Shown: piece after piece, positions 7,035 to 47,092 of the stretch
Numbering within the stretch: the stretch's first letter is position 1
Layout: every line of letters begins with the position of its first letter
Source of the DNA: Candidatus Cloacimonadales bacterium
GTDB lineage: Bacteria > Cloacimonadota > Cloacimonadia > Cloacimonadales > DAONDQ01
Direction of reading: 5' to 3'
Assembly (NCBI GenBank): GCA_963662275.1
Contig: OY759316.1
Location: 1,440,001-1,504,000, forward strand
DNA: 64,000 nt
The notes under the pieces: generated by a model
What the model was told of the DNA's origin: nothing
Seen by the model: only the letters and a program-made list of their open reading frames with translations
The model's database searches: none
Program-made: the position numbers and the translations under genes

Positions 7035-8927
7035 GGAGATGTCCCGAAACTAAATGATAGAAAAATAGCAACTATTAAATATTAATCATATTACTTGACA
7101 TATTGTTATAGGGTGTATTGTTGCCTTTAAAAACTAAGCATAGAGAGAATTATGAATTTCAGAGAGCACAATCCGAATCAGGGGACACTCTATGGACTTA
7201 ATATTGAAGAGAGAATACCTCCCCAGCACATGGTTCGTTATGTTAACGATGTCGTTGAGCAACTGGACTTATCTGAGCTATATACAAGATACTCTGATGA
7301 AGGTACACCTGCTTATCATCCCAAGATGATGTTGAAGATCATTGTATACGCCTATATCAATGGTATTTATACCTGTCGGAAGATAGCTAAGGCTGTTCGG
7401 GAGAACATCAATTTTATCTGGCTGGCAGGAGAACAGGAACCTGATTTCAGAACGATCAACACCTTTGCCTGGACTAAGTGTTCTGATATTCTTATTGATG
7501 TATTTTATCAGGTAGTACTGAAAGCATCATCATTAGGATATCTTGATCTCGACACCTGTTTTGTTGACGGGACGACGATTCACGCAAATGCCGGCAAGAA
7601 TTCCTACATCTGGAAAAGCAATGCGCTTCGTTATCAGGAACTGGTCAAGACACGAGTTGAGGGATTGTTTAAAAAGATCGAGGAATATAATCAGGAAGAG
7701 CAACAGCAATATGGAACCGCTGATCTTCTTGAGCTTGGTGAGCAATTGCATGCGGTTGAATCAGAGAAAACTGCTACAGTCGCATCTGAACAGATCAGAG
7801 ATAGACTGGTCTCAGCAGAAAACAAGCTGAAAGAAGCAATGTCCCGACTACAGAAAAATCATCCGTCAGATACTCGGGCTATCAAGAAAATCAAATCTCT
7901 TTTGCGCGAAATCTCCAAATCAAAGAGCAATGATATAACTAAGCTGGAGAAATATGAGCAACAGCTTGAGATAATTGGAGAAGGACGCAGCAGCACATCC
8001 AAGACTGATAATGATGCCACATTTATGCGATTGAAAAATGGACAGCTGGCACCGGGTTATGTTGCCAGTATCGGAACTTCAGAGCAATTTGTCACAGGCA
8101 TTCACTTATTCAATATCCCTAAAGAAACCGTTGAATTTCCCAATCTCATGGAGCAAATGCATGATGAATTGGGACAATATCCTACCGACGTTGTTGGAGA
8201 TGCTGCCTATGGCACTGCGCTGAATTTGAATTATGCTGCTGAAAAAGAGATAACAAGCTATCTCAAGACCCAGGATTATAAGAGAGATTATCGGGACTCT
8301 CTTCTGACAGGCTTCAGCTATGATGAGGAGCATGATGAGTGGGTCTGTCAATTTAATCGGAGACTGGTCAAAATCAAGGAAGAAGAGACAGAGAAGAACG
8401 GTCCGAAACGAATCGTGAAAACCTATATATGTAATGACTGCAGAGAATGTCCTCACAATAAAAAGTGTATTCCCTACAAGGATAAAACACATAAATCACT
8501 GACCTACGATCCTCATATAGCTCCACTAAAACGTCAGACCGTCAATAATCTGCTTTCTGAAAAAGGCGACAAGCTGAGAAAGCAAAGAGGCATCGAACCG
8601 GAGGCTGTATTTGCTTTCATGAAGTGGAACAGGAAGTTTGAGAGATTTACTGTCCGTTCATTGAGAAAATGCAAGGAACAGTTATCCCTCCTCTTTTTAG
8701 GACATAATATAGGGAAAATGTTTCTGCACTTACAAAATACTGAAGGAAAAGCCTGATGAAGACTCTTCCTACCAGAATTCAAACATGAATTAGGTAAATA
8801 TTACTCCGTTTTTCCTTGTCTTTGCATCGCTTTTCGGAAACTATTGAGTAATTTAGTTTGCCTGTAAAAACAATCACATATTTTACAACAGAAGAAAATA
8901 AAATCATGCTAGTTTCGGGACATCTCC
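7035..8927 (+). mobile_element. IS1182-family insertion sequence, copy 1 (1893 bp)
   Basis: Terminal inverted repeats GGAGATGTCCCGAAACTA at 7035-7052 and 8910-8927; near-identical inverted copy at 40750-42642. Confidence 0.92.
7152..8756 (+). CDS. IS1182-family DDE transposase
   Basis: AYHPKMMLK, PDFRTI, VDGTTIHANA, TDNDATFM, GDAAYG, CxxC..C, EPEAVF. Confidence 0.92.
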   Translation: MNFREHNPNQGTLYGLNIEERIPPQHMVRYVNDVVEQLDLSELYTRYSDEGTPAYHPKMMLKIIVYAYINGIYTCRKIAKAVRENINFIWLAGEQEPDFRTINTFAWTKCSDILIDVFYQVVLKASSLGYLDLDTCFVDGTTIHANAGKNSYIWKSNALRYQELVKTRVEGLFKKIEEYNQEEQQQYGTADLLELGEQLHAVESEKTATVASEQIRDRLVSAENKLKEAMSRLQKNHPSDTRAIKKIKSLLREISKSKSNDITKLEKYEQQLEIIGEGRSSTSKTDNDATFMRLKNGQLAPGYVASIGTSEQFVTGIHLFNIPKETVEFPNLMEQMHDELGQYPTDVVGDAAYGTALNLNYAAEKEITSYLKTQDYKRDYRDSLLTGFSYDEEHDEWVCQFNRRLVKIKEEETEKNGPKRIVKTYICNDCRECPHNKKCIPYKDKTHKSLTYDPHIAPLKRQTVNNLLSEKGDKLRKQRGIEPEAVFAFMKWNRKFERFTVRSLRKCKEQLSLLFLGHNIGKMFLHLQNTEGKA

Positions 8928-8963
8928 TTATATTGTTTTCGATTCAATTGATCCCCCCATCCA

Positions 8964-9059
8964 CCCATAATTTACATTATGGGCTATCATCTTGCATCTG
9001 TGCGGATTTGGACGGTATTGTTCATTCATTGATCCACCCATAGCTGACGCTATGGGCTA
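8964..9059 (+). repeat. REP palindromes (variant CCCATAATTTACATTATGGG and the intron-invaded CCCATAGCTGACGCTATGGG)
   Basis: Hairpins at 8964-8983 and 9037-9056; region matches 11790-11925. Confidence 0.85.
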
Positions 9060-10929
9060 GTACGATAGTGATAGATAGAAATCGGATGGGTGCAAGTCCC
9101 ATTTCAGGCTACGTCATGCCTGGTAGTCTATGTAACTGCTTCATCGTGAGATGGGGTGGGGAGTAACAAATGACGAAACAGCAGTCCGTAGGATAACGAA
9201 CTCGATTCGGCAGGATACAATGTCGAGCTTGCTAGCCTTAAGCGAAGACCAAAATCTTCTGGAATGATGCACTTCGGGTGAACCGGAGTTTCCCCCGGAA
9301 GATGGCAGACAGGCTGAGATGACGTGCAAAAGCCATGTACTGATTGTATCAAGTGACTGGAGACGGAATGTTGTGAAGGTTTCTATCTCAAGCTATGAGA
9401 CCTGCTGATGGGAAGAGACATCAGCAGGAGTCAGAGTGTTCATAGTAGCGATGATATTCAGGACACTATAACCTGAAAGTAGCGAAGGGGCACAGGAAAA
9501 TGAATTTTGAAAGGAGTATTGATGGAAGATCAACGTTCATTATTGCCGAAAACGGCTAAACAAGAACGAGAAATCCCTCCGCAATGGAGTTGGGTGGAAC
9601 CGTCAGTATGGTCTGACAAAATGTTGGCAGCGCTCGAAATGGGCGTCAAAGGTGGAAAATGGTTCAGTCTGATAGACAAGGTATATGCCATGGCAAACCT
9701 TGCATCAGCTTGGAAACACGTGGCATCCAACAGAGGTAGTGCCGGTATCGACAATGTCAGCATCCAGCACTACAAAAGACATGCGCTGGCAAGATTAGTA
9801 CGAACCTCCGAACTGTTGCAAAAGGAAGCGTATCAACCCAATGGAATCAAACGTGTCTGGATAGATAAACCGGGCAGTAAGGAAAAGAGACCTTTGGGCA
9901 TACCGACCGTCACGGACAGAGTAGTACAAACAGCACTGCGCAATGTAATCGAACCGATATTTGAACAGGGATTTGCCGAACACAGTTATGGCTTTCGTCC
10001 CAAACGCGACTGCAAAGATGCTTTAAGACAAGTCGATGGACTTCTCAAGCAGGGATACGTCTTTGTTGTGGATGCAGACCTGAAAGGATACTTTGACAGT
10101 ATACCGCAGGACAAGCTGATGAAGCGTGTAGGAGAAAAGATAGCAGACGGGAAAGTTCTGAATCTTATCAATGACTATTTGAATCAAAAAGTAATGGATA
10201 CAACGTCAACCTGGACACCGGAAACGGGAACACCTCAGGGAGCAGTTATCAGTCCATTACTGGCAAACATTTATCTGAATCCTCTGGACTGGCTTATGGC
10301 AGGCAAAGGCTATAGAATGATACGCTATGCGGATGATTTTGTAGTCATGTGTCAAAGTCGAGAGGAAGCAGAAATGGCTTTATGTACAATAGGCGAATGG
10401 GTTGAAAAAGCAGGTCTGGTTTTGCATCCTGAAAAGACTAAAATACTGGACGCAGAAACGGAAGCGGTGGAATTTTTAGGATACCACTTCTTCAAGGGTA
10501 AAAGATACCCCAGACAGAAGAGTATCAACAAGTTCAAAGACAGCATCCGTAAATGTACCGGACGCAGTAATGCCCACAGCTTACAAACCATAATAGCTAA
10601 AATCAAGCCGATTCAAAGAGGTTGGTTCGAGTATTACAAACACTGTTACAAAACAGTCTTTCCTAACTTGGATGGCTGGGTAAGACACAGGCTACGCAGT
10701 ATCCTCAGAAAGAGGAAAAAGCGCTATGGTATTGCCACAGGAAAAGACAATATCAGGTATCCAAATTACATCTTTGATAATGCTGGGTTTTTCTCATTAA
10801 CCAAAGCCCATCAGGAATTATGTCAATCTCTTAAATGAGAACTCGTTTTCTGGAGAGCCGTATGCGGGAGAACCGCACGTACGGTTCGGAGGGAGGGGAG
10901 CCAGTAATGGATTACTCCCCTACCCCTAT
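9060..10929 (+). mobile_element. Group II intron, copy 1 (1870 bp)
   Basis: Starts GTACG, ends CCCTAT; domain V GAGCCGTATGCGGGAGAACCGCACGTACGGTTC and domain VI with bulged A; removal restores GGGCTA|TCATC. Confidence 0.95.
9522..10838 (+). CDS. ltrA: Group II intron reverse transcriptase/maturase without endonuclease domain
   Basis: RPLGIP, SYGFRP, GTPQGAVISPLLANIYL, RYADD, maturase X domain; no HNH tail; AAGGAG RBS before ATG 9522. Confidence 0.95.
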   Translation: MEDQRSLLPKTAKQEREIPPQWSWVEPSVWSDKMLAALEMGVKGGKWFSLIDKVYAMANLASAWKHVASNRGSAGIDNVSIQHYKRHALARLVRTSELLQKEAYQPNGIKRVWIDKPGSKEKRPLGIPTVTDRVVQTALRNVIEPIFEQGFAEHSYGFRPKRDCKDALRQVDGLLKQGYVFVVDADLKGYFDSIPQDKLMKRVGEKIADGKVLNLINDYLNQKVMDTTSTWTPETGTPQGAVISPLLANIYLNPLDWLMAGKGYRMIRYADDFVVMCQSREEAEMALCTIGEWVEKAGLVLHPEKTKILDAETEAVEFLGYHFFKGKRYPRQKSINKFKDSIRKCTGRSNAHSLQTIIAKIKPIQRGWFEYYKHCYKTVFPNLDGWVRHRLRSILRKRKKRYGIATGKDNIRYPNYIFDNAGFFSLTKAHQELCQSLK

Positions 10930-10969
10930 TCATCTTGCATCCGTGCGGATTTGGACGGATAAGATATTA

Positions 10970-11413
10970 TCATGAATTATGATCATTTATTACCGGATAT
11001 CCATGGGCAATTAAGAATTTGTTGAATTCTTCCTGATAATCGATCTTTTTGTGATGTTCTTCCTGGTTTTGAATGTACTCTTTCACTTGAGGGATATTGG
11101 ATTTGCTAACGCTGAAAATGCCATATCCAATTTGCCAATGAAATTCGCCTTCATATGTTTCATGCATCCATTTGCTTGAATTAGCCTTGATTGTTCTAAT
11201 AAAATCAGAAATACCCATGTCTTTTGGAAGAAGAGCCAGGATGTGGACATGATCTTCGGTGCCATTCATTTGAATGACCTTACCTTGAACGTTACGGATA
11301 ATTCCGGTTATATATTCAAAAAGACGAGTTCGGACTTCCTGATTGAGCCAAGGGTTGCGGTTTTTGGTTGTAAATATGATGTGTGCAGCTACATGAAAAT
11401 ATGAATGCGGCAT
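10970..11413 (-). CDS. tnpA: IS200/IS605-family Y1 HUH transposase, REP-associated (RAYT-like)
   Basis: HIIFTTKNR, DHVHIL (HUH), WQIGYGIFSVS, YIQNQEEHH; no tnpB; REP clusters on both sides. Confidence 0.88.
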   Translation of the reverse strand: MPHSYFHVAAHIIFTTKNRNPWLNQEVRTRLFEYITGIIRNVQGKVIQMNGTEDHVHILALLPKDMGISDFIRTIKANSSKWMHETYEGEFHWQIGYGIFSVSKSNIPQVKEYIQNQEEHHKKIDYQEEFNKFLIAHGYPVINDHNS

Positions 11414-11491: not shown

Positions 11492-11930
11492 AGATGATAG
11501 CCATAGCGTTGTACATGTTTGCCAGATGATAGCCCATAGCGTAAGCTATGGGACGGCGAGTAGATTTTTTTAAACATTTGTGCCAGATAATAGCCCATAG
11601 CGTAAGCTATGGGGAAGGAATTCAATGATTTTGCACACGTTGTGTGCCAGATGATAGCCCATAGCGTAAGCTATGGGAAAGGGATTCAATGATTTTTAAC
11701 ACGTTGTGTGTTAGATGATAGCCCATAGCGTAAGCTATGGGGATACGTTGAATGGGAAATGTTGATAACGAGGTGTCACCCCGACGTGGTTTATATTGTT
11801 TTCGATTCAATTGATCCCCCCATCCACCCATAATTTACATTATGGGCTATCATCTTTCATCCGTGCGGATTTGGACGGTATTGTTCATTCATTGATCCAC
11901 CCATAATTTACATTATGGGCTATCATCTGG
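11492..11930. repeat. REP cluster upstream of tnpA: four hairpins in one orientation, two variants in the other
   Basis: Hairpins start at 11533, 11594, 11658, 11722 and 11827, 11900. Confidence 0.9.
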
Positions 11931-12146
11931 CATCCTTGTGGGATTTAAATTTAACAGGATATCGTAACCTGCTTACTCAATAGTGGCAATGACAGGATAT
12001 TTGAACGGAGTTAAGAATAACAGACTTTACTCAATTCATCGGGCTGAAGAATCAATCTATAAGCCTATCCAGAAAAATCTGATTGACACGAAAACTGAAT
12101 CAATGATAAGCGAACTAGAAGAAAATATTACTATTATGGAGGATTT

Positions 12147-40749: not shown

Positions 40750-42642
40750 GGAGATGTCCCGAAACTAGCATGATTTTATTTTCTTCTGTTGTAAAATATG
40801 TGATTGTTTTTACAGGCAAACTAAATTACTCAATAGTTTCCGAAAAGCGATGCAAAGACAAGGAAAAACGGAGTAATATTTACCTAATTCATGTTTGAAT
40901 TCTGGTAGGAAGAGTCTTCATCAGGCTTTTCCTTCAGTATTTTGTAAGTGCAGAAACATTTTCCCTATATTATGTCCTAAAAAGAGGAGGGATAACTGTT
41001 CCTTGCATTTTCTCAATGAACGGACAGTAAATCTCTCAAACTTCCTGTTCCACTTCATGAAAGCAAATACAGCCTCCGGTTCGATGCCTCTTTGCTTTCT
41101 CAGCTTGTCGCCTTTTTCAGAAAGCAGATTATTGACTGTCTGACGTTTTAGTGGAGCTATATGAGGATCGTAGGTCAGTGATTTATGTGTTTTATCCTTG
41201 TAGGGAATACACTTTTTATTGTGAGGACATTCTCTGCAGTCATTACATATATAGGTTTTCACGATTCGTTTCGGACCGTTCTTCTCTGTCTCTTCTTCCT
41301 TGATTTTGACCAGTCTCCGATTAAATTGACAGACCCACTCATCATGCTCCTCATCATAGCTGAAGCCTGTCAGAAGAGAGTCCCGATAATCTCTCTTATA
41401 ATCCTGGGTCTTGAGATAGCTTGTTATCTCTTTTTCAGCAGCATAATTCAAATTCAGCGCAGTGCCATAGGCAGCATCTCCAACAACGTCGGTAGGATAT
41501 TGTCCCAATTCATCATGCATTTGCTCCATGAGATTGGGAAATTCAACGGTTTCTTTAGGGATATTGAATAAGTGAATGCCTGTGACAAATTGCTCTGAAG
41601 TTCCGATACTGGCAACATAACCCGGTGCCAGCTGTCCATTTTTCAATCGCATAAATGTGGCATCATTATCAGTCTTGGATGTGCTGCTGCGTCCTTCTCC
41701 AATTATCTCAAGCTGTTGCTCATATTTCTCCAGCTTAGTTATATCATTGCTCTTTGATTTGGAGATTTCGCGCAAAAGAGATTTGATTTTCTTGATAGCC
41801 CGAGTATCTGACGGATGATTTTTCTGTAGTCGGGACATTGCTTCTTTCAGCTTGTTTTCTGCTGAGACCAGTCTATCTCTGATCTGTTCAGATGCGACTG
41901 TAGCAGTTTTCTCTGATTCAACCGCATGCAATTGCTCACCAAGCTCAAGAAGATCAGCGGTTCCATATTGCTGTTGCTCTTCCTGATTATATTCCTCGAT
42001 CTTTTTAAACAATCCCTCAACTCGTGTCTTGACCAGTTCCTGATAACGAAGCGCATTGCTTTTCCAGATGTAGGAATTCTTGCCGGCATTTGCGTGAATC
42101 GTCGTCCCGTCAACAAAACAGGTGTCGAGATCAAGATATCCTAATGATGATGCTTTCAGTACTACCTGATAAAATACATCAATAAGAATATCAGAACACT
42201 TAGTCCAGGCAAAGGTGTTGATCGTTCTGAAATCAGGTTCCTGTTCTCCTGCCAGCCAGATAAAATTGATGTTCTCCCGAACAGCCTTAGCTATCTTCCG
42301 ACAGGTATAAATACCATTGATATAGGCATACACAATGATCTTCAACATCATCTTGGGATGATAAGCAGGTGTACCTTCATCAGAGTATCTTGTATATAGC
42401 TCAGATAAGTCCAGTTGCTCAACGACATCGTTAACATAACGAACCATGTGCTGGGGAGGTATTCTCTCTTCAATATTAAGTCCATAGAGTGTCCCCTGAT
42501 TCGGATTGTGCTCTCTGAAATTCATAATTCTCTCTATGCTTAGTTTTTAAAGGCAACAATACACCCTATAACAATATGTCAAGTAATATGATTAATATTT
42601 AATAGTTGCTATTTTTCTATCATTTAGTTTCGGGACATCTCC
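40750..42642 (-). mobile_element. IS1182-family insertion sequence, copy 2 (1893 bp)
   Basis: Same inverted repeats as copy 1; at least three synonymous differences seen. Confidence 0.92.
40921..42525 (-). CDS. IS1182-family DDE transposase
   Basis: Protein identical to 7152-8756. Confidence 0.92.
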   Translation of the reverse strand: MNFREHNPNQGTLYGLNIEERIPPQHMVRYVNDVVEQLDLSELYTRYSDEGTPAYHPKMMLKIIVYAYINGIYTCRKIAKAVRENINFIWLAGEQEPDFRTINTFAWTKCSDILIDVFYQVVLKASSLGYLDLDTCFVDGTTIHANAGKNSYIWKSNALRYQELVKTRVEGLFKKIEEYNQEEQQQYGTADLLELGEQLHAVESEKTATVASEQIRDRLVSAENKLKEAMSRLQKNHPSDTRAIKKIKSLLREISKSKSNDITKLEKYEQQLEIIGEGRSSTSKTDNDATFMRLKNGQLAPGYVASIGTSEQFVTGIHLFNIPKETVEFPNLMEQMHDELGQYPTDVVGDAAYGTALNLNYAAEKEITSYLKTQDYKRDYRDSLLTGFSYDEEHDEWVCQFNRRLVKIKEEETEKNGPKRIVKTYICNDCRECPHNKKCIPYKDKTHKSLTYDPHIAPLKRQTVNNLLSEKGDKLRKQRGIEPEAVFAFMKWNRKFERFTVRSLRKCKEQLSLLFLGHNIGKMFLHLQNTEGKA

Positions 42643-42824
42643 TTAAATTATTCTCAATTTATTGACATTGACTGGGCTATTATCTGCCATCCATGCAGGA
42701 TTCGGAAGTATTTTCTGTTTATTTCCACCCACCCATAGCTGACGCTATGGGCTATCATCTTGCATACATGTGGGAATTGTTCATTCGTTGATGCTCCCCC
42801 ACCCATAGCTGACGCTATGGGCTA

Positions 42825-44694
42825 GTACGATAGTGATAGATAGAAATCGGATGGGTGCAAGTCCCATTTCAGGCTACGTCATGCCTGGTAGTCTATGTAA
42901 CTGCTTCATCGTGAGATGGGGTGGGGAGTAACAAATGACGAAACAGCAGTCCGTAGGATAACGAACTCGATTCGGCAGGATACAATGTCGAGCTTGCTAG
43001 CCTTAAGCGAAGACCAAAATCTTCTGGAATGATGCACTTCGGGTGAACCGGAGTTTCCCCCGGAAGATGGCAGACAGGCTGAGATGACGTGCAAAAGCCA
43101 TGTACTGATTGTATCAAGTGACTGGAGACGGAATGTTGTGAAGGTTTCTATCTCAAGCTATGAGACCTGCTGATGGGAAGAGACATCAGCAGGAGTCAGA
43201 GTGTTCATAGTAGCGATGATATTCAGGACACTATAACCTGAAAGTAGCGAAGGGGCACAGGAAAATGAATTTTGAAAGGAGTATTGATGGAAGATCAACG
43301 TTCATTATTGCCGAAAACGGCTAAACAAGAACGAGAAATCCCTCCGCAATGGAGTTGGGTGGAACCGTCAGTATGGTCTGACAAAATGTTGGCAGCGCTC
43401 GAAATGGGCGTCAAAGGTGGAAAATGGTTCAGTCTGATAGACAAGGTATATGCCATGGCAAACCTTGCATCAGCTTGGAAACACGTGGCATCCAACAGAG
43501 GTAGTGCCGGTATCGACAATGTCAGCATCCAGCACTACAAAAGACATGCGCTGGCAAGATTAGTACGAACCTCCGAACTGTTGCAAAAGGAAGCGTATCA
43601 ACCCAATGGAATCAAACGTGTCTGGATAGATAAACCGGGCAGTAAGGAAAAGAGACCTTTGGGCATACCGACCGTCACGGACAGAGTAGTACAAACAGCA
43701 CTGCGCAATGTAATCGAACCGATATTTGAACAGGGATTTGCCGAACACAGTTATGGCTTTCGTCCCAAACGCGACTGCAAAGATGCTTTAAGACAAGTCG
43801 ATGGACTTCTCAAGCAGGGATACGTCTTTGTTGTGGATGCAGACCTGAAAGGATACTTTGACAGTATACCGCAGGACAAGCTGATGAAGCGTGTAGGAGA
43901 AAAGATAGCAGACGGGAAAGTTCTGAATCTTATCAATGACTATTTGAATCAAAAAGTAATGGATACAACGTCAACCTGGACACCGGAAACGGGAACACCT
44001 CAGGGAGCAGTTATCAGTCCATTACTGGCAAACATTTATCTGAATCCTCTGGACTGGCTTATGGCAGGCAAAGGCTATAGAATGATACGCTATGCGGATG
44101 ATTTTGTAGTCATGTGTCAAAGTCGAGAGGAAGCAGAAATGGCTTTATGTACAATAGGCGAATGGGTTGAAAAAGCAGGTCTGGTTTTGCATCCTGAAAA
44201 GACTAAAATACTGGACGCAGAAACGGAAGCGGTGGAATTTTTAGGATACCACTTCTTCAAGGGTAAAAGATACCCCAGACAGAAGAGTATCAACAAGTTC
44301 AAAGACAGCATCCGTAAATGTACCGGACGCAGTAATGCCCACAGCTTACAAACCATAATAGCTAAAATCAAGCCGATTCAAAGAGGTTGGTTCGAGTATT
44401 ACAAACACTGTTACAAAACAGTCTTTCCTAACTTGGATGGCTGGGTAAGACACAGGCTACGCAGTATCCTCAGAAAGAGGAAAAAGCGCTATGGTATTGC
44501 CACAGGAAAAGACAATATCAGGTATCCAAATTACATCTTTGATAATGCTGGGTTTTTCTCATTAACCAAAGCCCATCAGGAATTATGTCAATCTCTTAAA
44601 TGAGAACTCGTTTTCTGGAGAGCCGTATGCGGGAGAACCGCACGTACGGTTCGGAGGGAGGGGAGCCAGTAATGGATTACTCCCCTACCCCTAT
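42825..44694 (+). mobile_element. Group II intron, copy 2
   Basis: Same boundaries and length as 9060-10929. Confidence 0.95.
43287..44603 (+). CDS. ltrA: Group II intron reverse transcriptase/maturase
   Basis: Protein identical to copy 1. Confidence 0.95.
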   Translation: MEDQRSLLPKTAKQEREIPPQWSWVEPSVWSDKMLAALEMGVKGGKWFSLIDKVYAMANLASAWKHVASNRGSAGIDNVSIQHYKRHALARLVRTSELLQKEAYQPNGIKRVWIDKPGSKEKRPLGIPTVTDRVVQTALRNVIEPIFEQGFAEHSYGFRPKRDCKDALRQVDGLLKQGYVFVVDADLKGYFDSIPQDKLMKRVGEKIADGKVLNLINDYLNQKVMDTTSTWTPETGTPQGAVISPLLANIYLNPLDWLMAGKGYRMIRYADDFVVMCQSREEAEMALCTIGEWVEKAGLVLHPEKTKILDAETEAVEFLGYHFFKGKRYPRQKSINKFKDSIRKCTGRSNAHSLQTIIAKIKPIQRGWFEYYKHCYKTVFPNLDGWVRHRLRSILRKRKKRYGIATGKDNIRYPNYIFDNAGFFSLTKAHQELCQSLK

Positions 44695-44834
44695 TCATCT
44701 TGCATACATGTGGGAATTGTTCATTCGTTGACGCTCCCCCACCCATAGCTTACGCTATGGGCTATCATCTTGCATACATATGGGAATTGTTCATTCGTTG
44801 ACGCTCCCCCACCCATAGCTGACGCTATGGGCTA

Positions 44835-46704
44835 GTACGATAGTGATAGATAGAAATCGGATGGGTGCAAGTCCCATTTCAGGCTACGTCATGCCTGGTA
44901 GTCTATGTAACTGCTTCATCGTGAGATGGGGTGGGGAGTAACAAATGACGAAACAGCAGTCCGTAGGATAACGAACTCGATTCGGCAGGATACAATGTCG
45001 AGCTTGCTAGCCTTAAGCGAAGACCAAAATCTTCTGGAATGATGCACTTCGGGTGAACCGGAGTTTCCCCCGGAAGATGGCAGACAGGCTGAGATGACGT
45101 GCAAAAGCCATGTACTGATTGTATCAAGTGACTGGAGACGGAATGTTGTGAAGGTTTCTATCTCAAGCTATGAGACCTGCTGATGGGAAGAGACATCAGC
45201 AGGAGTCAGAGTGTTCATAGTAGCGATGATATTCAGGACACTATAACCTGAAAGTAGCGAAGGGGCACAGGAAAATGAATTTTGAAAGGAGTATTGATGG
45301 AAGATCAACGTTCATTATTGCCGAAAACGGCTAAACAAGAACGAGAAATCCCTCCGCAATGGAGTTGGGTGGAACCGTCAGTATGGTCTGACAAAATGTT
45401 GGCAGCGCTCGAAATGGGCGTCAAAGGTGGAAAATGGTTCAGTCTGATAGACAAGGTATATGCCATGGCAAACCTTGCATCAGCTTGGAAACACGTGGCA
45501 TCCAACAGAGGTAGTGCCGGTATCGACAATGTCAGCATCCAGCACTACAAAAGACATGCGCTGGCAAGATTAGTACGAACCTCCGAACTGTTGCAAAAGG
45601 AAGCGTATCAACCCAATGGAATCAAACGTGTCTGGATAGATAAACCGGGCAGTAAGGAAAAGAGACCTTTGGGCATACCGACCGTCACGGACAGAGTAGT
45701 ACAAACAGCACTGCGCAATGTAATCGAACCGATATTTGAACAGGGATTTGCCGAACACAGTTATGGCTTTCGTCCCAAACGCGACTGCAAAGATGCTTTA
45801 AGACAAGTCGATGGACTTCTCAAGCAGGGATACGTCTTTGTTGTGGATGCAGACCTGAAAGGATACTTTGACAGTATACCGCAGGACAAGCTGATGAAGC
45901 GTGTAGGAGAAAAGATAGCAGACGGGAAAGTTCTGAATCTTATCAATGACTATTTGAATCAAAAAGTAATGGATACAACGTCAACCTGGACACCGGAAAC
46001 GGGAACACCTCAGGGAGCAGTTATCAGTCCATTACTGGCAAACATTTATCTGAATCCTCTGGACTGGCTTATGGCAGGCAAAGGCTATAGAATGATACGC
46101 TATGCGGATGATTTTGTAGTCATGTGTCAAAGTCGAGAGGAAGCAGAAATGGCTTTATGTACAATAGGCGAATGGGTTGAAAAAGCAGGTCTGGTTTTGC
46201 ATCCTGAAAAGACTAAAATACTGGACGCAGAAACGGAAGCGGTGGAATTTTTAGGATACCACTTCTTCAAGGGTAAAAGATACCCCAGACAGAAGAGTAT
46301 CAACAAGTTCAAAGACAGCATCCGTAAATGTACCGGACGCAGTAATGCCCACAGCTTACAAACCATAATAGCTAAAATCAAGCCGATTCAAAGAGGTTGG
46401 TTCGAGTATTACAAACACTGTTACAAAACAGTCTTTCCTAACTTGGATGGCTGGGTAAGACACAGGCTACGCAGTATCCTCAGAAAGAGGAAAAAGCGCT
46501 ATGGTATTGCCACAGGAAAAGACAATATCAGGTATCCAAATTACATCTTTGATAATGCTGGGTTTTTCTCATTAACCAAAGCCCATCAGGAATTATGTCA
46601 ATCTCTTAAATGAGAACTCGTTTTCTGGAGAGCCGTATGCGGGAGAACCGCACGTACGGTTCGGAGGGAGGGGAGCCAGTAATGGATTACTCCCCTACCC
46701 CTAT
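44835..46704 (+). mobile_element. Group II intron, copy 3
   Basis: Same boundaries and length; begins 140 bp after copy 2. Confidence 0.93.
45297..46613 (+). CDS. ltrA: Group II intron reverse transcriptase/maturase
   Basis: Protein identical to copy 1. Confidence 0.93.
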   Translation: MEDQRSLLPKTAKQEREIPPQWSWVEPSVWSDKMLAALEMGVKGGKWFSLIDKVYAMANLASAWKHVASNRGSAGIDNVSIQHYKRHALARLVRTSELLQKEAYQPNGIKRVWIDKPGSKEKRPLGIPTVTDRVVQTALRNVIEPIFEQGFAEHSYGFRPKRDCKDALRQVDGLLKQGYVFVVDADLKGYFDSIPQDKLMKRVGEKIADGKVLNLINDYLNQKVMDTTSTWTPETGTPQGAVISPLLANIYLNPLDWLMAGKGYRMIRYADDFVVMCQSREEAEMALCTIGEWVEKAGLVLHPEKTKILDAETEAVEFLGYHFFKGKRYPRQKSINKFKDSIRKCTGRSNAHSLQTIIAKIKPIQRGWFEYYKHCYKTVFPNLDGWVRHRLRSILRKRKKRYGIATGKDNIRYPNYIFDNAGFFSLTKAHQELCQSLK

Positions 46705-47092
46705 TCATCTTGCATACATGTGGGAATTGTTCATTCGTTGACGCTCCCCCACCCATAGCTTACGCTATGGGCTATCATCTTGCATACATATGGGAATTGT
46801 TCATTCTTTGACGCTCCCCCACCCATAGCTTACGCTATGGGCTATCATCTTGCATACATATGGGAATTGTTCATTCGTTGACGCTCTCCCACCCATAGCT
46901 TACGCTATGGGCTATCATCTTGCATACATATGGGAATTGTTCATTCGTTGACGCTCCCCCACCCATAGCTTACGCTATGGGCTGATCATCTGGCATCCCA
47001 TCGCTCACGATATAGGTTTGAATTTTAGATTGACATCATAGCATAAATATGGAATAAATTGTTTAATCATTCTCAGAAAAGGGAAGCATGAT

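Follow-up and report, generated by a model that had tools for sequence, protein, structure and literature searches.

A group II intron lineage inserted into RAYT-associated REP units of a Candidatus Cloacimonadales genome

How does a group II intron come to sit at one and the same base of a short palindromic repeat in copy after copy? This question is raised by a stretch of 64,000 nt from the genome of a Candidatus Cloacimonadales bacterium (GCA_963662275.1, contig OY759316.1, positions 1,440,001 to 1,504,000 of the forward strand), which is called the window below and whose own numbering is used unless a genome or contig handle precedes the coordinates. A first-pass annotation of the window, made by a model from the letters alone, proposed that the intron at 9060-10929 homes into repetitive extragenic palindromes (REPs) associated with a Y1 transposase (RAYT), and that it lies outside class C (IIC). 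To our knowledge, recognition of a DNA shape, the hairpin, sets IIC-type introns apart from all other group II classes, which read long sequence. We found that all seven insertions of this intron in the genome lie in REP units, and that it represents an IIC-like hairpin-targeting lineage, specialised on REPs and neighbouring class C, with a different domain V.

Intron copies and the REP units that hold them

The intron is complete and 1870 nt long. It is present three times in the window, and a search of the whole genome (one contig of 4.38 Mb, 39% G+C) brought the total to six full copies, 100% identical to each other over all 1870 nt, and revealed one 5' fragment elsewhere (residues 1-272, 98% identical). 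Domains V and VI were located in an Rfam scan by the model RF00029 (63.6 bits, gathering score 40) at 10853-10929, 44618-44694 and 46628-46704. The intron-encoded reverse transcriptase (RT) contains the Pfam domains RVT_1 (7.8e-40) and GIIM (2.7e-17), and its open reading frame (ORF) stops about 36 amino acids (aa) past GIIM, leaving no endonuclease domain. The full-length AGC domain V, the GTACG start and the missing endonuclease domain, all claimed in the first-pass annotation, were seen again. The parts of the intron are listed below, where EBS1 stands for exon-binding site 1.

9060..10929, plus strand: group II intron copy 1, 1870 nt, GTACG...CCTAT, 100% identical to five other genomic copies
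9140..9292, plus strand: domain I core resembling the class C (IIC) domain I model, RF02001 31.9 bits (gathering score 32), E 3.8e-4
9227..9243, plus strand: EBS1 stem-loop with a GCTT/AAGC stem, EBS1 TAGCCT at 9233-9238; the homologous loop is present in all lineage members and covaries with the exons
9522..10838, plus strand: intron-encoded RT/maturase, 438 aa, YADD motif, RVT_1 and GIIM, without endonuclease domain
10855..10887, plus strand: domain V, 33 nt, AGC triad, 4-bp distal stem and 5-nt loop, E/F type
10888..10929, plus strand: domain VI, bulged A 8 nt from the 3' splice site (RF00029 alignment)
42825..44694, plus strand: intron copy 2, RF00029 match, 100% identity
44835..46704, plus strand: intron copy 3, RF00029 match, 100% identity

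Each window copy is preceded by CCCATAGC-TGAC-GCTATGGG-CTA and followed by TCATC. This hairpin pattern has 16 matches in the window, where 0.01 would be expected. It forms part of a unit with two hairpins. The first (P1) has an 8-bp stem (in some units with one bulged base) closed by a 4-nt loop; behind it come the trinucleotide YTA, about 10 nt of linker and another, small hairpin (P2). The first-pass annotation had seen the three window copies at the same site, 3 nt after a REP hairpin, and this observation extends to the whole genome: in seven of seven insertions the intron stands 3 nt past the first hairpin, after YTA, and the junction is exact to the base. Because the intron lands between YTA and the next base, it splits the REP unit into P1, which belongs to the 5' exon, and the linker with P2, which belong to the 3' exon. 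When the flanks of each insertion are set against empty units, they rebuild an intact unit. The first base of the 3' exon (+1) is T in all six full copies.

Three REP families with unrelated outer flanks are occupied. The REP1 family, built on the CCCATAGC hairpin, holds four of the six full copies (the three in the window and one elsewhere); a second family, CGCCGGAT...GCG-TTA, holds one full copy and the 5' fragment; and a third, of the CGCCGGGC...GTG-TTA type, holds the remaining full copy. In total the genome contains 202 strict hairpin-YTA sites, which fall into families. Three genomic copies had been considered as insertions at non-REP hairpins, but this was dropped because their hairpins proved to be further REP families of like build. 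The units around the window copies are as follows (IBS1, intron-binding site 1).

8964..9015, plus strand: unoccupied variant REP unit (P1, CTA|T, linker, P2); its 3' part matches the 3' exon of the intron with one mismatch; RF01687 26 bits at 8964-9008
9037..9056, plus strand: P1 hairpin of the REP unit holding copy 1, end of the 5' exon; 8-bp stem, TGAC loop, DNA fold -8.4 kcal/mol; ends 3 nt before the splice site
9054..9059, plus strand: IBS1 GGGCTA, overlapping the end of the P1 stem and the CTA tail; forms five Watson-Crick pairs and one G-U with EBS1
10930..10958, plus strand: 3' exon, the rest of the REP unit, with T at +1, linker and P2 hairpin at 10939-10950
42732..42824, plus strand: two 70-bp REP units, the second carrying copy 2 (sequence pattern)
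44742..44834, plus strand: pair of REP units separating copies 2 and 3, of which the first is empty (sequence pattern)
46752..46981, plus strand: four further units of the tandem array, the first three being empty GGGCTA|T sites and the last reading GGGCTGA

Intact unoccupied sites thus exist at 8964-9015 and at several points of the tandem array of 70-bp units (42732-46981). The occupied units of this array have a TGAC loop; most of the empty ones have TTAC, but one TGAC unit (42732) is also empty.

The gene next to copy 1 encodes a Y1 (IS200-like) transposase. REP1 units stand to its left in the plus orientation, one of them with the intron, and four inverted units stand to its right. There are four full-length Y1 genes in the genome, two of which are flanked by target families of the intron; the second such RAYT, at C1:3137270, adjoins units of the second target family.

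10970..11413, minus strand: gene of a RAYT (REP-associated Y1 transposase), Pfam Y1_Tnp 8.6e-29, with REP1 units in opposite orientations on both sides
11533..11741, minus strand: four inverted REP1 units beyond the RAYT gene; their GTAA loops are the reverse complement of TTAC
11900..11945, plus strand: REP unit above the Acido-Lenti-1 threshold, RF01687 37.9 bits (gathering score 37)

According to an excerpt of Di Nocera (2013, PMC3733652), RAYT-associated REPs are marked by an unpaired GTAG tag at one end of the palindrome. Here, the YTA tail and its following base give an NTAR tag when the opposite strand is read. The tag is GTAG in several families of the genome (e.g., in 29 of 29 GGGTCTGC units), and it is ATAG or ATAA, as against the canonical GTAG, in the families occupied by the intron.

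The preferred REP family of the intron is the Acido-Lenti-1 motif of Rfam (RF01687). This model has 21 matches in the genome, ten of them over the cut-off; the CCCATAGC hairpin is found in 11 of the 17 matches listed, and the other six have the same layout with different stems. The seed rows of RF01687 that we saw end in a CUAC tail, the reverse complement of GTAG. The motif has reportedly been noted near group II introns. In a 2026 preprint it is termed 'of unknown function'. The proposal of homing into RAYT-associated REPs is therefore borne out and can be widened: it applies to all seven insertions, target families flank two RAYTs, and relatives of the intron likewise lie in hairpin repeats.

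Exon pairing, relatives and proposed mechanism

The hexamer TAGCCT at 9233-9238, guessed to be EBS1 in the first-pass annotation, lies in the loop that corresponds to the EBS1 position of the class C domain I model, and covariation with the exons confirmed the guess. In the alignment used here, ten relatives from other genomes are represented by their 5' parts. In all lineage members the loop is in the same register, and it pairs by position with the last bases of the 5' exon. Over nine distinct intron variants, cognate EBS1-IBS1 pairing amounts to 4.67 of 5 positions, compared with 2.26 of 5 for the 72 non-cognate combinations, and none of 10000 permutations reached the observed value. Examples are given below (EBS1, then the end of the 5' exon).

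Window intron: UAGCC, GGCUA
L001: AAUAU, GUAUU
L006: UAGAU, AUCUA
L005: GGAAC, GUUCC
L007: CUGUC, GACAG
L016: UAUCC, GGAUA
L014: GAGC, GUUC

An additional compensatory case is provided by genome G019, whose intron (68% identical, six copies) has UAGGG facing CCCUA.

At the three occupied families, EBS1 forms five to six pairs with the REP1 tail and four with the GCGUUA and GUGUUA tails; the better pairing at REP1 fits the presence of four of the six full copies in that family. Two other families of the genome may be described here. The REP family CCCAGGAA...TTCCTGGG comprises 18 units, 16 of which end in GGGCTA, a perfect IBS1, with G, A or C at +1, and none is occupied. The GGGTCTGC units end in CCCCTA|C in 29 of 29 cases, and all of them are empty.

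Upstream of IBS1 the exons share only a hairpin of varying sequence, and the region of domain I in which EBS2 would be expected is variable or deleted among the relatives. Judged from these alignments, the intron probably has no EBS2, in agreement with the first-pass annotation, where none was found.

Insertion behind a hairpin is a habit of the lineage as a whole. The relatives' insertions with a readable 5' junction come from 11 other genomes (11 contig loci, six copies in G019 and one fragment in G010), and in 18 of 18 a GC-rich hairpin precedes the splice site by 2-7 nt; none of these hairpins leads into a T run. Tabulation of 5' exons, suggested earlier as a check, thus gave seven REP units for seven own insertions and 18 hairpins for 18 readable sites of relatives. 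The +1 base, read in 18 relatives' copies with a 3' junction, is C in 15, T in two and G in one. In all four genomes in which the hairpins were counted they are dispersed repeats, often arranged as tandem arrays of about 70 bp or as inverted pairs, and each of these genomes (G001, G002, G003 and G019) encodes RAYT-like proteins.

First hairpin pattern: 19 in G001, 6 in G002; reversed-pattern control 0
Second hairpin pattern: 5 in G002, 34 in G003; reversed-pattern control 0
Third hairpin pattern: 55 in G019; reversed-pattern control 0

The insertion in G019 reads hairpin-CTA|C and lies inside a canonical GTAG tag. No intron copy was found in G004, a relative from the same genus, and for the F-like relatives L011-L013 the 5' boundaries could not be fixed. 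At L009:1870-2029 two lineage introns stand back to back, the 3' end of one directly joined to the 5' end of the next. At L006:798-873 the target hairpin of a lineage intron is itself preceded by another group II domain V/VI, whose end lies 35 nt before that intron.

The host genome also contains three remnants of about 105 nt from the 5' end of an older related intron (77-79% identity; G000:C1:514287-514391, 2539099-2539203 and 3889056-3889162). Two of them were examined, and both stand behind a different hairpin in tandem repeats, AACCGCGTAAATGCGGAG...; this points to an older wave of introns into another repeat family.

We consider it probable that the intron is an active retroelement, whose ribonucleoprotein (RNP) reverse-splices into DNA at REP units, and that it belongs to a separate RT and ribozyme lineage, for which a position as the sister group of class C fits best. 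From the shared features of the sites we infer a target of three parts: the P1 stem-loop of a RAYT-associated GTAG-type REP, acting as a DNA hairpin; the 4-6 nt that follow and overlap the hairpin base (IBS1, G-G-C-U-A or G-Y-U-A), which are read by the EBS1 loop UAGCC(U) of domain I; and T as the first base of the 3' exon. The RNP would reverse-splice into single-stranded DNA, where a REP can fold into its hairpin, and cDNA synthesis would presumably be primed at replication forks. With an RT that has no endonuclease, the intron would have to rely on replication for priming; priming at the fork without an endonuclease is the known mechanism of IIC introns. By GC skew, replication starts at about 4.16 Mb (origin) and ends at about 2.15 Mb (terminus). 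Relative to them, six of the seven intron copies are co-oriented with replication, as are all 11 copies of the classical IIC intron of the same genome, and this bias is consistent with IIC-like retrohoming at replication forks.

Class placement and alternative explanations

Class-labelled references were taken from the 5'- and 3'-end alignments and the Table S1 rows for plasmid-borne introns in the portion of Waldern et al. (2020, PMC7306698) used here. They derive from 19 plasmid stretches, the class E reference NC_016814.1 being left out. The coordinates of Table S1 are imprecise, 10 of 23 labelled introns starting with GTGYG at the listed base; annotated ORFs were therefore used for the tree, and only those ten introns as exon controls. 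The maximum-likelihood tree (LG+G4, 30 rows) omits the truncated or duplicate ORFs of L003, L004, L008, L010, L014 and L015, the fused L018, the wrong L005 ORF and two near-identical references; L016, L017 and L019 are absent because they have no ORF of 330 aa or more.

In this tree the lineage forms a clade (six rows, support 100/100) that is sister to class C (four rows including a second intron of the same genome, 99/98), and the pairing of the two has a support of 90/93. The other classes, B, CL, D, E, F and ML, are each recovered as a clade. Nesting of the lineage with either class C sublineage was rejected (p-AU, approximately unbiased test, 0.005 each), the groups having been named after the tree was seen. 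Pairwise RT identity is 35-39% to class C and 33-36% to class F, and the best matches of the RT in the PDB are IIC RTs (210-216 bits), followed by a CL RT (149 bits) and LtrA (128 bits).

The ribozyme presents a mixed picture. The Rfam models of domain I map one-to-one to the labelled classes (RF02001 to C, RF02003 to F, RF02005 to E, RF01999 to D, RF02004 to B and RF02012 to CL1), and the match listed for the window intron is RF02001, just below its gathering score. Among other lineage members L016 reaches 46.8 bits with this model, and L001, L002, L006 and L007 stay below the gathering score. For the class F model RF02003 no match is listed down to E 1, with one overlapping lower-scoring match of the same clan hidden that could be RF02003. 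Domain V, in contrast, with its 33 nt, AGC triad and 4-bp distal stem, has the form of the labelled class E and F introns, whereas the distal stem measures 3 bp in the labelled introns of class C. Hallmarks of IIC introns given in an excerpt of Toor (2006, PMC1702495) are a domain V distal stem shorter by 2 bp, CGC in place of AGC, and an 11-nt epsilon-prime bulge with conserved AGGAA. The bulge motif is replaced in our lineage, a conserved GUGGRGAGYAAC standing against UCUGAAGGAAgc in RF02001.

Two of the signs by which the first-pass annotation had set the intron apart from IIC have to be given up. GTACG starts are frequent in class C (26 matches in the class-labelled 5'-end files, mostly class C), and the AGC triad also occurs in one class C sublineage and in the terminator-targeting intron of the same genome. 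The label 'non-IIC' itself stands in part: the RT falls outside the four sampled class C proteins and domain V is of the E/F type, but the lineage is sister to class C, and the domain I match listed is to RF02001, just short of its gathering score. The RT phylogeny, which had been named as one check, gave a likewise mixed answer, rejecting a place inside class C, putting the lineage beside it and not rejecting a clade with class F.

In total, the lineage resembles class C (IIC; B.h.I1, GsI-IIC and the E. rectale IIC intron) in having an RT without endonuclease, a single short EBS1 with apparently no EBS2 and a putative single-base contact with the 3' exon. It also shares with class C the intergenic sites, the orientation bias linked to replication, the RF02001-like domain I and the nearest RT clade. 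Insertion just past a DNA hairpin is common to both, at 3 nt here and 2-7 nt in relatives, compared with 3-11 nt for IIC introns in the cited excerpt (Toor, 2006, PMC1702495). It is unlike class C in that its target hairpins are REP units without a T run, while classical IIC targets are terminators, and in that IBS1 at the cognate REP spans 5-6 bp (4 bp at the other two families) as against 3-4 bp in IIC; domain V, the bulge motif and the position of the RT outside the sampled class C clade also separate the two. Since the RT is sister to class C and domain I fits RF02001, hairpin targeting is most simply regarded as shared with IIC, and a separate origin is unneeded.

How far the lineage stands from class C can be read in several ways. 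It is quite possible, if still tentative, that it deserves the rank of an unnamed class-level lineage, the sister group of IIC, whose ribozyme is a hybrid, with domain I like that of IIC and domains V and VI like those of classes E and F, and which is specialised to REPs maintained by RAYT. Its members would read the hairpin together with the conserved tag that RAYT itself needs, so that the target would be kept intact and multiplied by RAYT. Rather unlikely is that we are dealing with a divergent member of bacterial class C whose domain V is atypical and which is set apart only by sequence drift. The PDB matches and the sister position in the tree agree with such a drift, as do the fit of domain I to RF02001, the occurrence of AGC triads and GTACG starts within class C, and the IIC traits of hairpin targeting, a single short EBS1 and a missing endonuclease domain; even the identity to class C comes near to the 38-41% found between class C sublineages. 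It is, however, difficult to reconcile with the rejected nesting in either sublineage (with the groups named from the tree itself), with the longer distal stem of domain V, with the replacement of the conserved AGGAA motif, and with RF02001 scores below the gathering score in four of the five lineage members scanned and in the window intron.

That the intron is instead a IIB-like relative of class F which acquired hairpin and REP targeting independently of IIC appears improbable. Introns of classes F and E do share with it the domain V with a 13-nt distal stem-loop of the GCGG-GARAA-CCGC type, the absence of an endonuclease domain and, in some cases, the GTACG start; a clade uniting the lineage with class F and F-like rows was not rejected (p-AU 0.19), and the F-like relative L011 (41%, 256 bits) scores equal to the nearest class C protein. 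But the best tree pairs the lineage with class C. Class F and E introns retrohome to specific sequences via EBS1 and EBS2, and RF02003 and RF02005 are not among the matches listed here, where RF02001 is (with the hidden match as a possible RF02003). The two labelled class F introns that start with GTGYG at the listed coordinate have no hairpin beside the splice site.

Quite another explanation is that the copies spread at the DNA level and not by retrohoming, either by unequal crossing-over in REP arrays or by co-mobilisation with REPs by RAYT. REPs are themselves mobile or recombinogenic, and a distance of 2010 bp separates copies 2 and 3 within a single 70-bp tandem array. As a general account this is very improbable: the other copies occupy three REP families with unrelated flanks, and the outer flanks were not duplicated along with the intron; the junction is base-exact in seven of seven insertions; EBS1 changes together with the target across genomes; and the copies are 100% identical while the neighbouring REP units differ. 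DNA-level spread accounts at most for window copies 2 and 3, which, lying in one array, may go back to a single insertion followed by unequal crossing-over.

This last possibility is one of several observations that weigh against an active REP-homing lineage beside class C. In the contigs of four sequencing runs we found neither a spliced junction nor an empty allele, and the flanks of the other copies appear there as loose ends. Two of the nine variants (L002/L003 and L004/L008) have an internal mismatch within the first three EBS1-IBS1 pairs, and two of the six G019 copies have C, not A, at -1. A requirement for T at +1 is suggestive only, as the counts are weak: of the strict GGCTA hairpin sites, 24 have T at +1 and 18 have another base, and the intron occupies four of the former and none of the latter. 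When EBS3 was sought by covariation with the first base of the 3' exon, no column of the 5' alignment covaried. The copy at C1:756158 runs against replication. Finally, the class placement is based on four class C and two class F reference proteins, and it has to be taken together with the unrejected class F clade.

Other mobile elements at REPs and significance

Outside the window, the genome has a second family of introns, each about 2.1 kb long (G000:C1:723449-725561 and ten further copies). Ten of its copies are 97-100% identical, and one is 94% identical and has a stop codon. It starts with GTTTG, and all copies directly follow a terminator hairpin with a T run. Its domain V is of the short IIC form, AGC with a 3-bp distal stem, and its RT clusters with a labelled class C intron from a D. 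psychrophila plasmid.

An insertion sequence (IS) with a DDE_Tnp_1_6 transposase (ORF at 7152-8756) has ends near 8900-8935 and 42630-42655 and occurs also from G000:C1:926490 onward. Its terminal sequence GGAGATGTCCCGAAAC abuts REP units at several places, once 9 nt downstream of the intron copy C1:924613, and several REP units elsewhere run into the same GGAGATGTCCCGAAAC end. The element looks like a REP-targeting IS that shares its landing sites with the intron.

Similar habits have been described for other elements. In the passages of Tobes & Pareja (2006, PMC1525189) on ISPpu9, ISPpu10 and IS1397, REPs likewise serve as safe, renewable intergenic landing sites; those elements, unlike the intron, are DNA transposons. 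A single table row of the same paper lists a group II intron of P. putida KT2440 with two of nine copies REP-associated, a minority, whereas here every copy lies in a REP and the lineage uses REP-type hairpins at a fixed base. The IIC-attC introns, as far as they are described in part of Zimmerly & Semper (2015, PMC4424553), are a comparable case of a sublineage specialised on the repeated, folded recombination site of another element. They differ in their target, the bottom-strand hairpin of the integron attC site in place of RAYT-associated REPs; the comparison is one of descriptions and not of sequences.

The same part of that review names terminators and attC sites as IIC targets and mentions further unpublished classes, and the excerpt of Toor (2006, PMC1702495) has IIC introns following terminators 'or other inverted repeats'. 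In the literature searched, of which these sources were represented in part, no description of a REP-specialised group II intron lineage was found, the nearest being the KT2440 table entry and the 'other inverted repeats' of Toor (2006). The statement of the first-pass annotation that no description was known therefore holds for a specialised lineage, but REP-associated copies of a group II intron had already been listed for KT2440.

REPs would thus represent a third systematic class of targets for IIC-type introns, beside terminators and integron attC sites. The lineage is found in REP-type repeats in five genomes, with the EBS1 loop retuned to the repeat tail of each host, and these introns offer a natural compensatory series for studying the combined recognition of a hairpin and a short helix. 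As the lineage branches beside class C and yet has an AGC domain V of standard length, it bears on the question of which IIC peculiarities go together with hairpin targeting. If it is indeed a class-level lineage, it would be a retroelement parasitic on the repeats of a domesticated transposon, and the nature of the Acido-Lenti-1 motif would be explained, as would its reported occurrence near group II introns. In this genome two mobile systems, RAYT/REP and a retroelement, are stacked on one site, and an apparent REP-targeting IS is present beside them.

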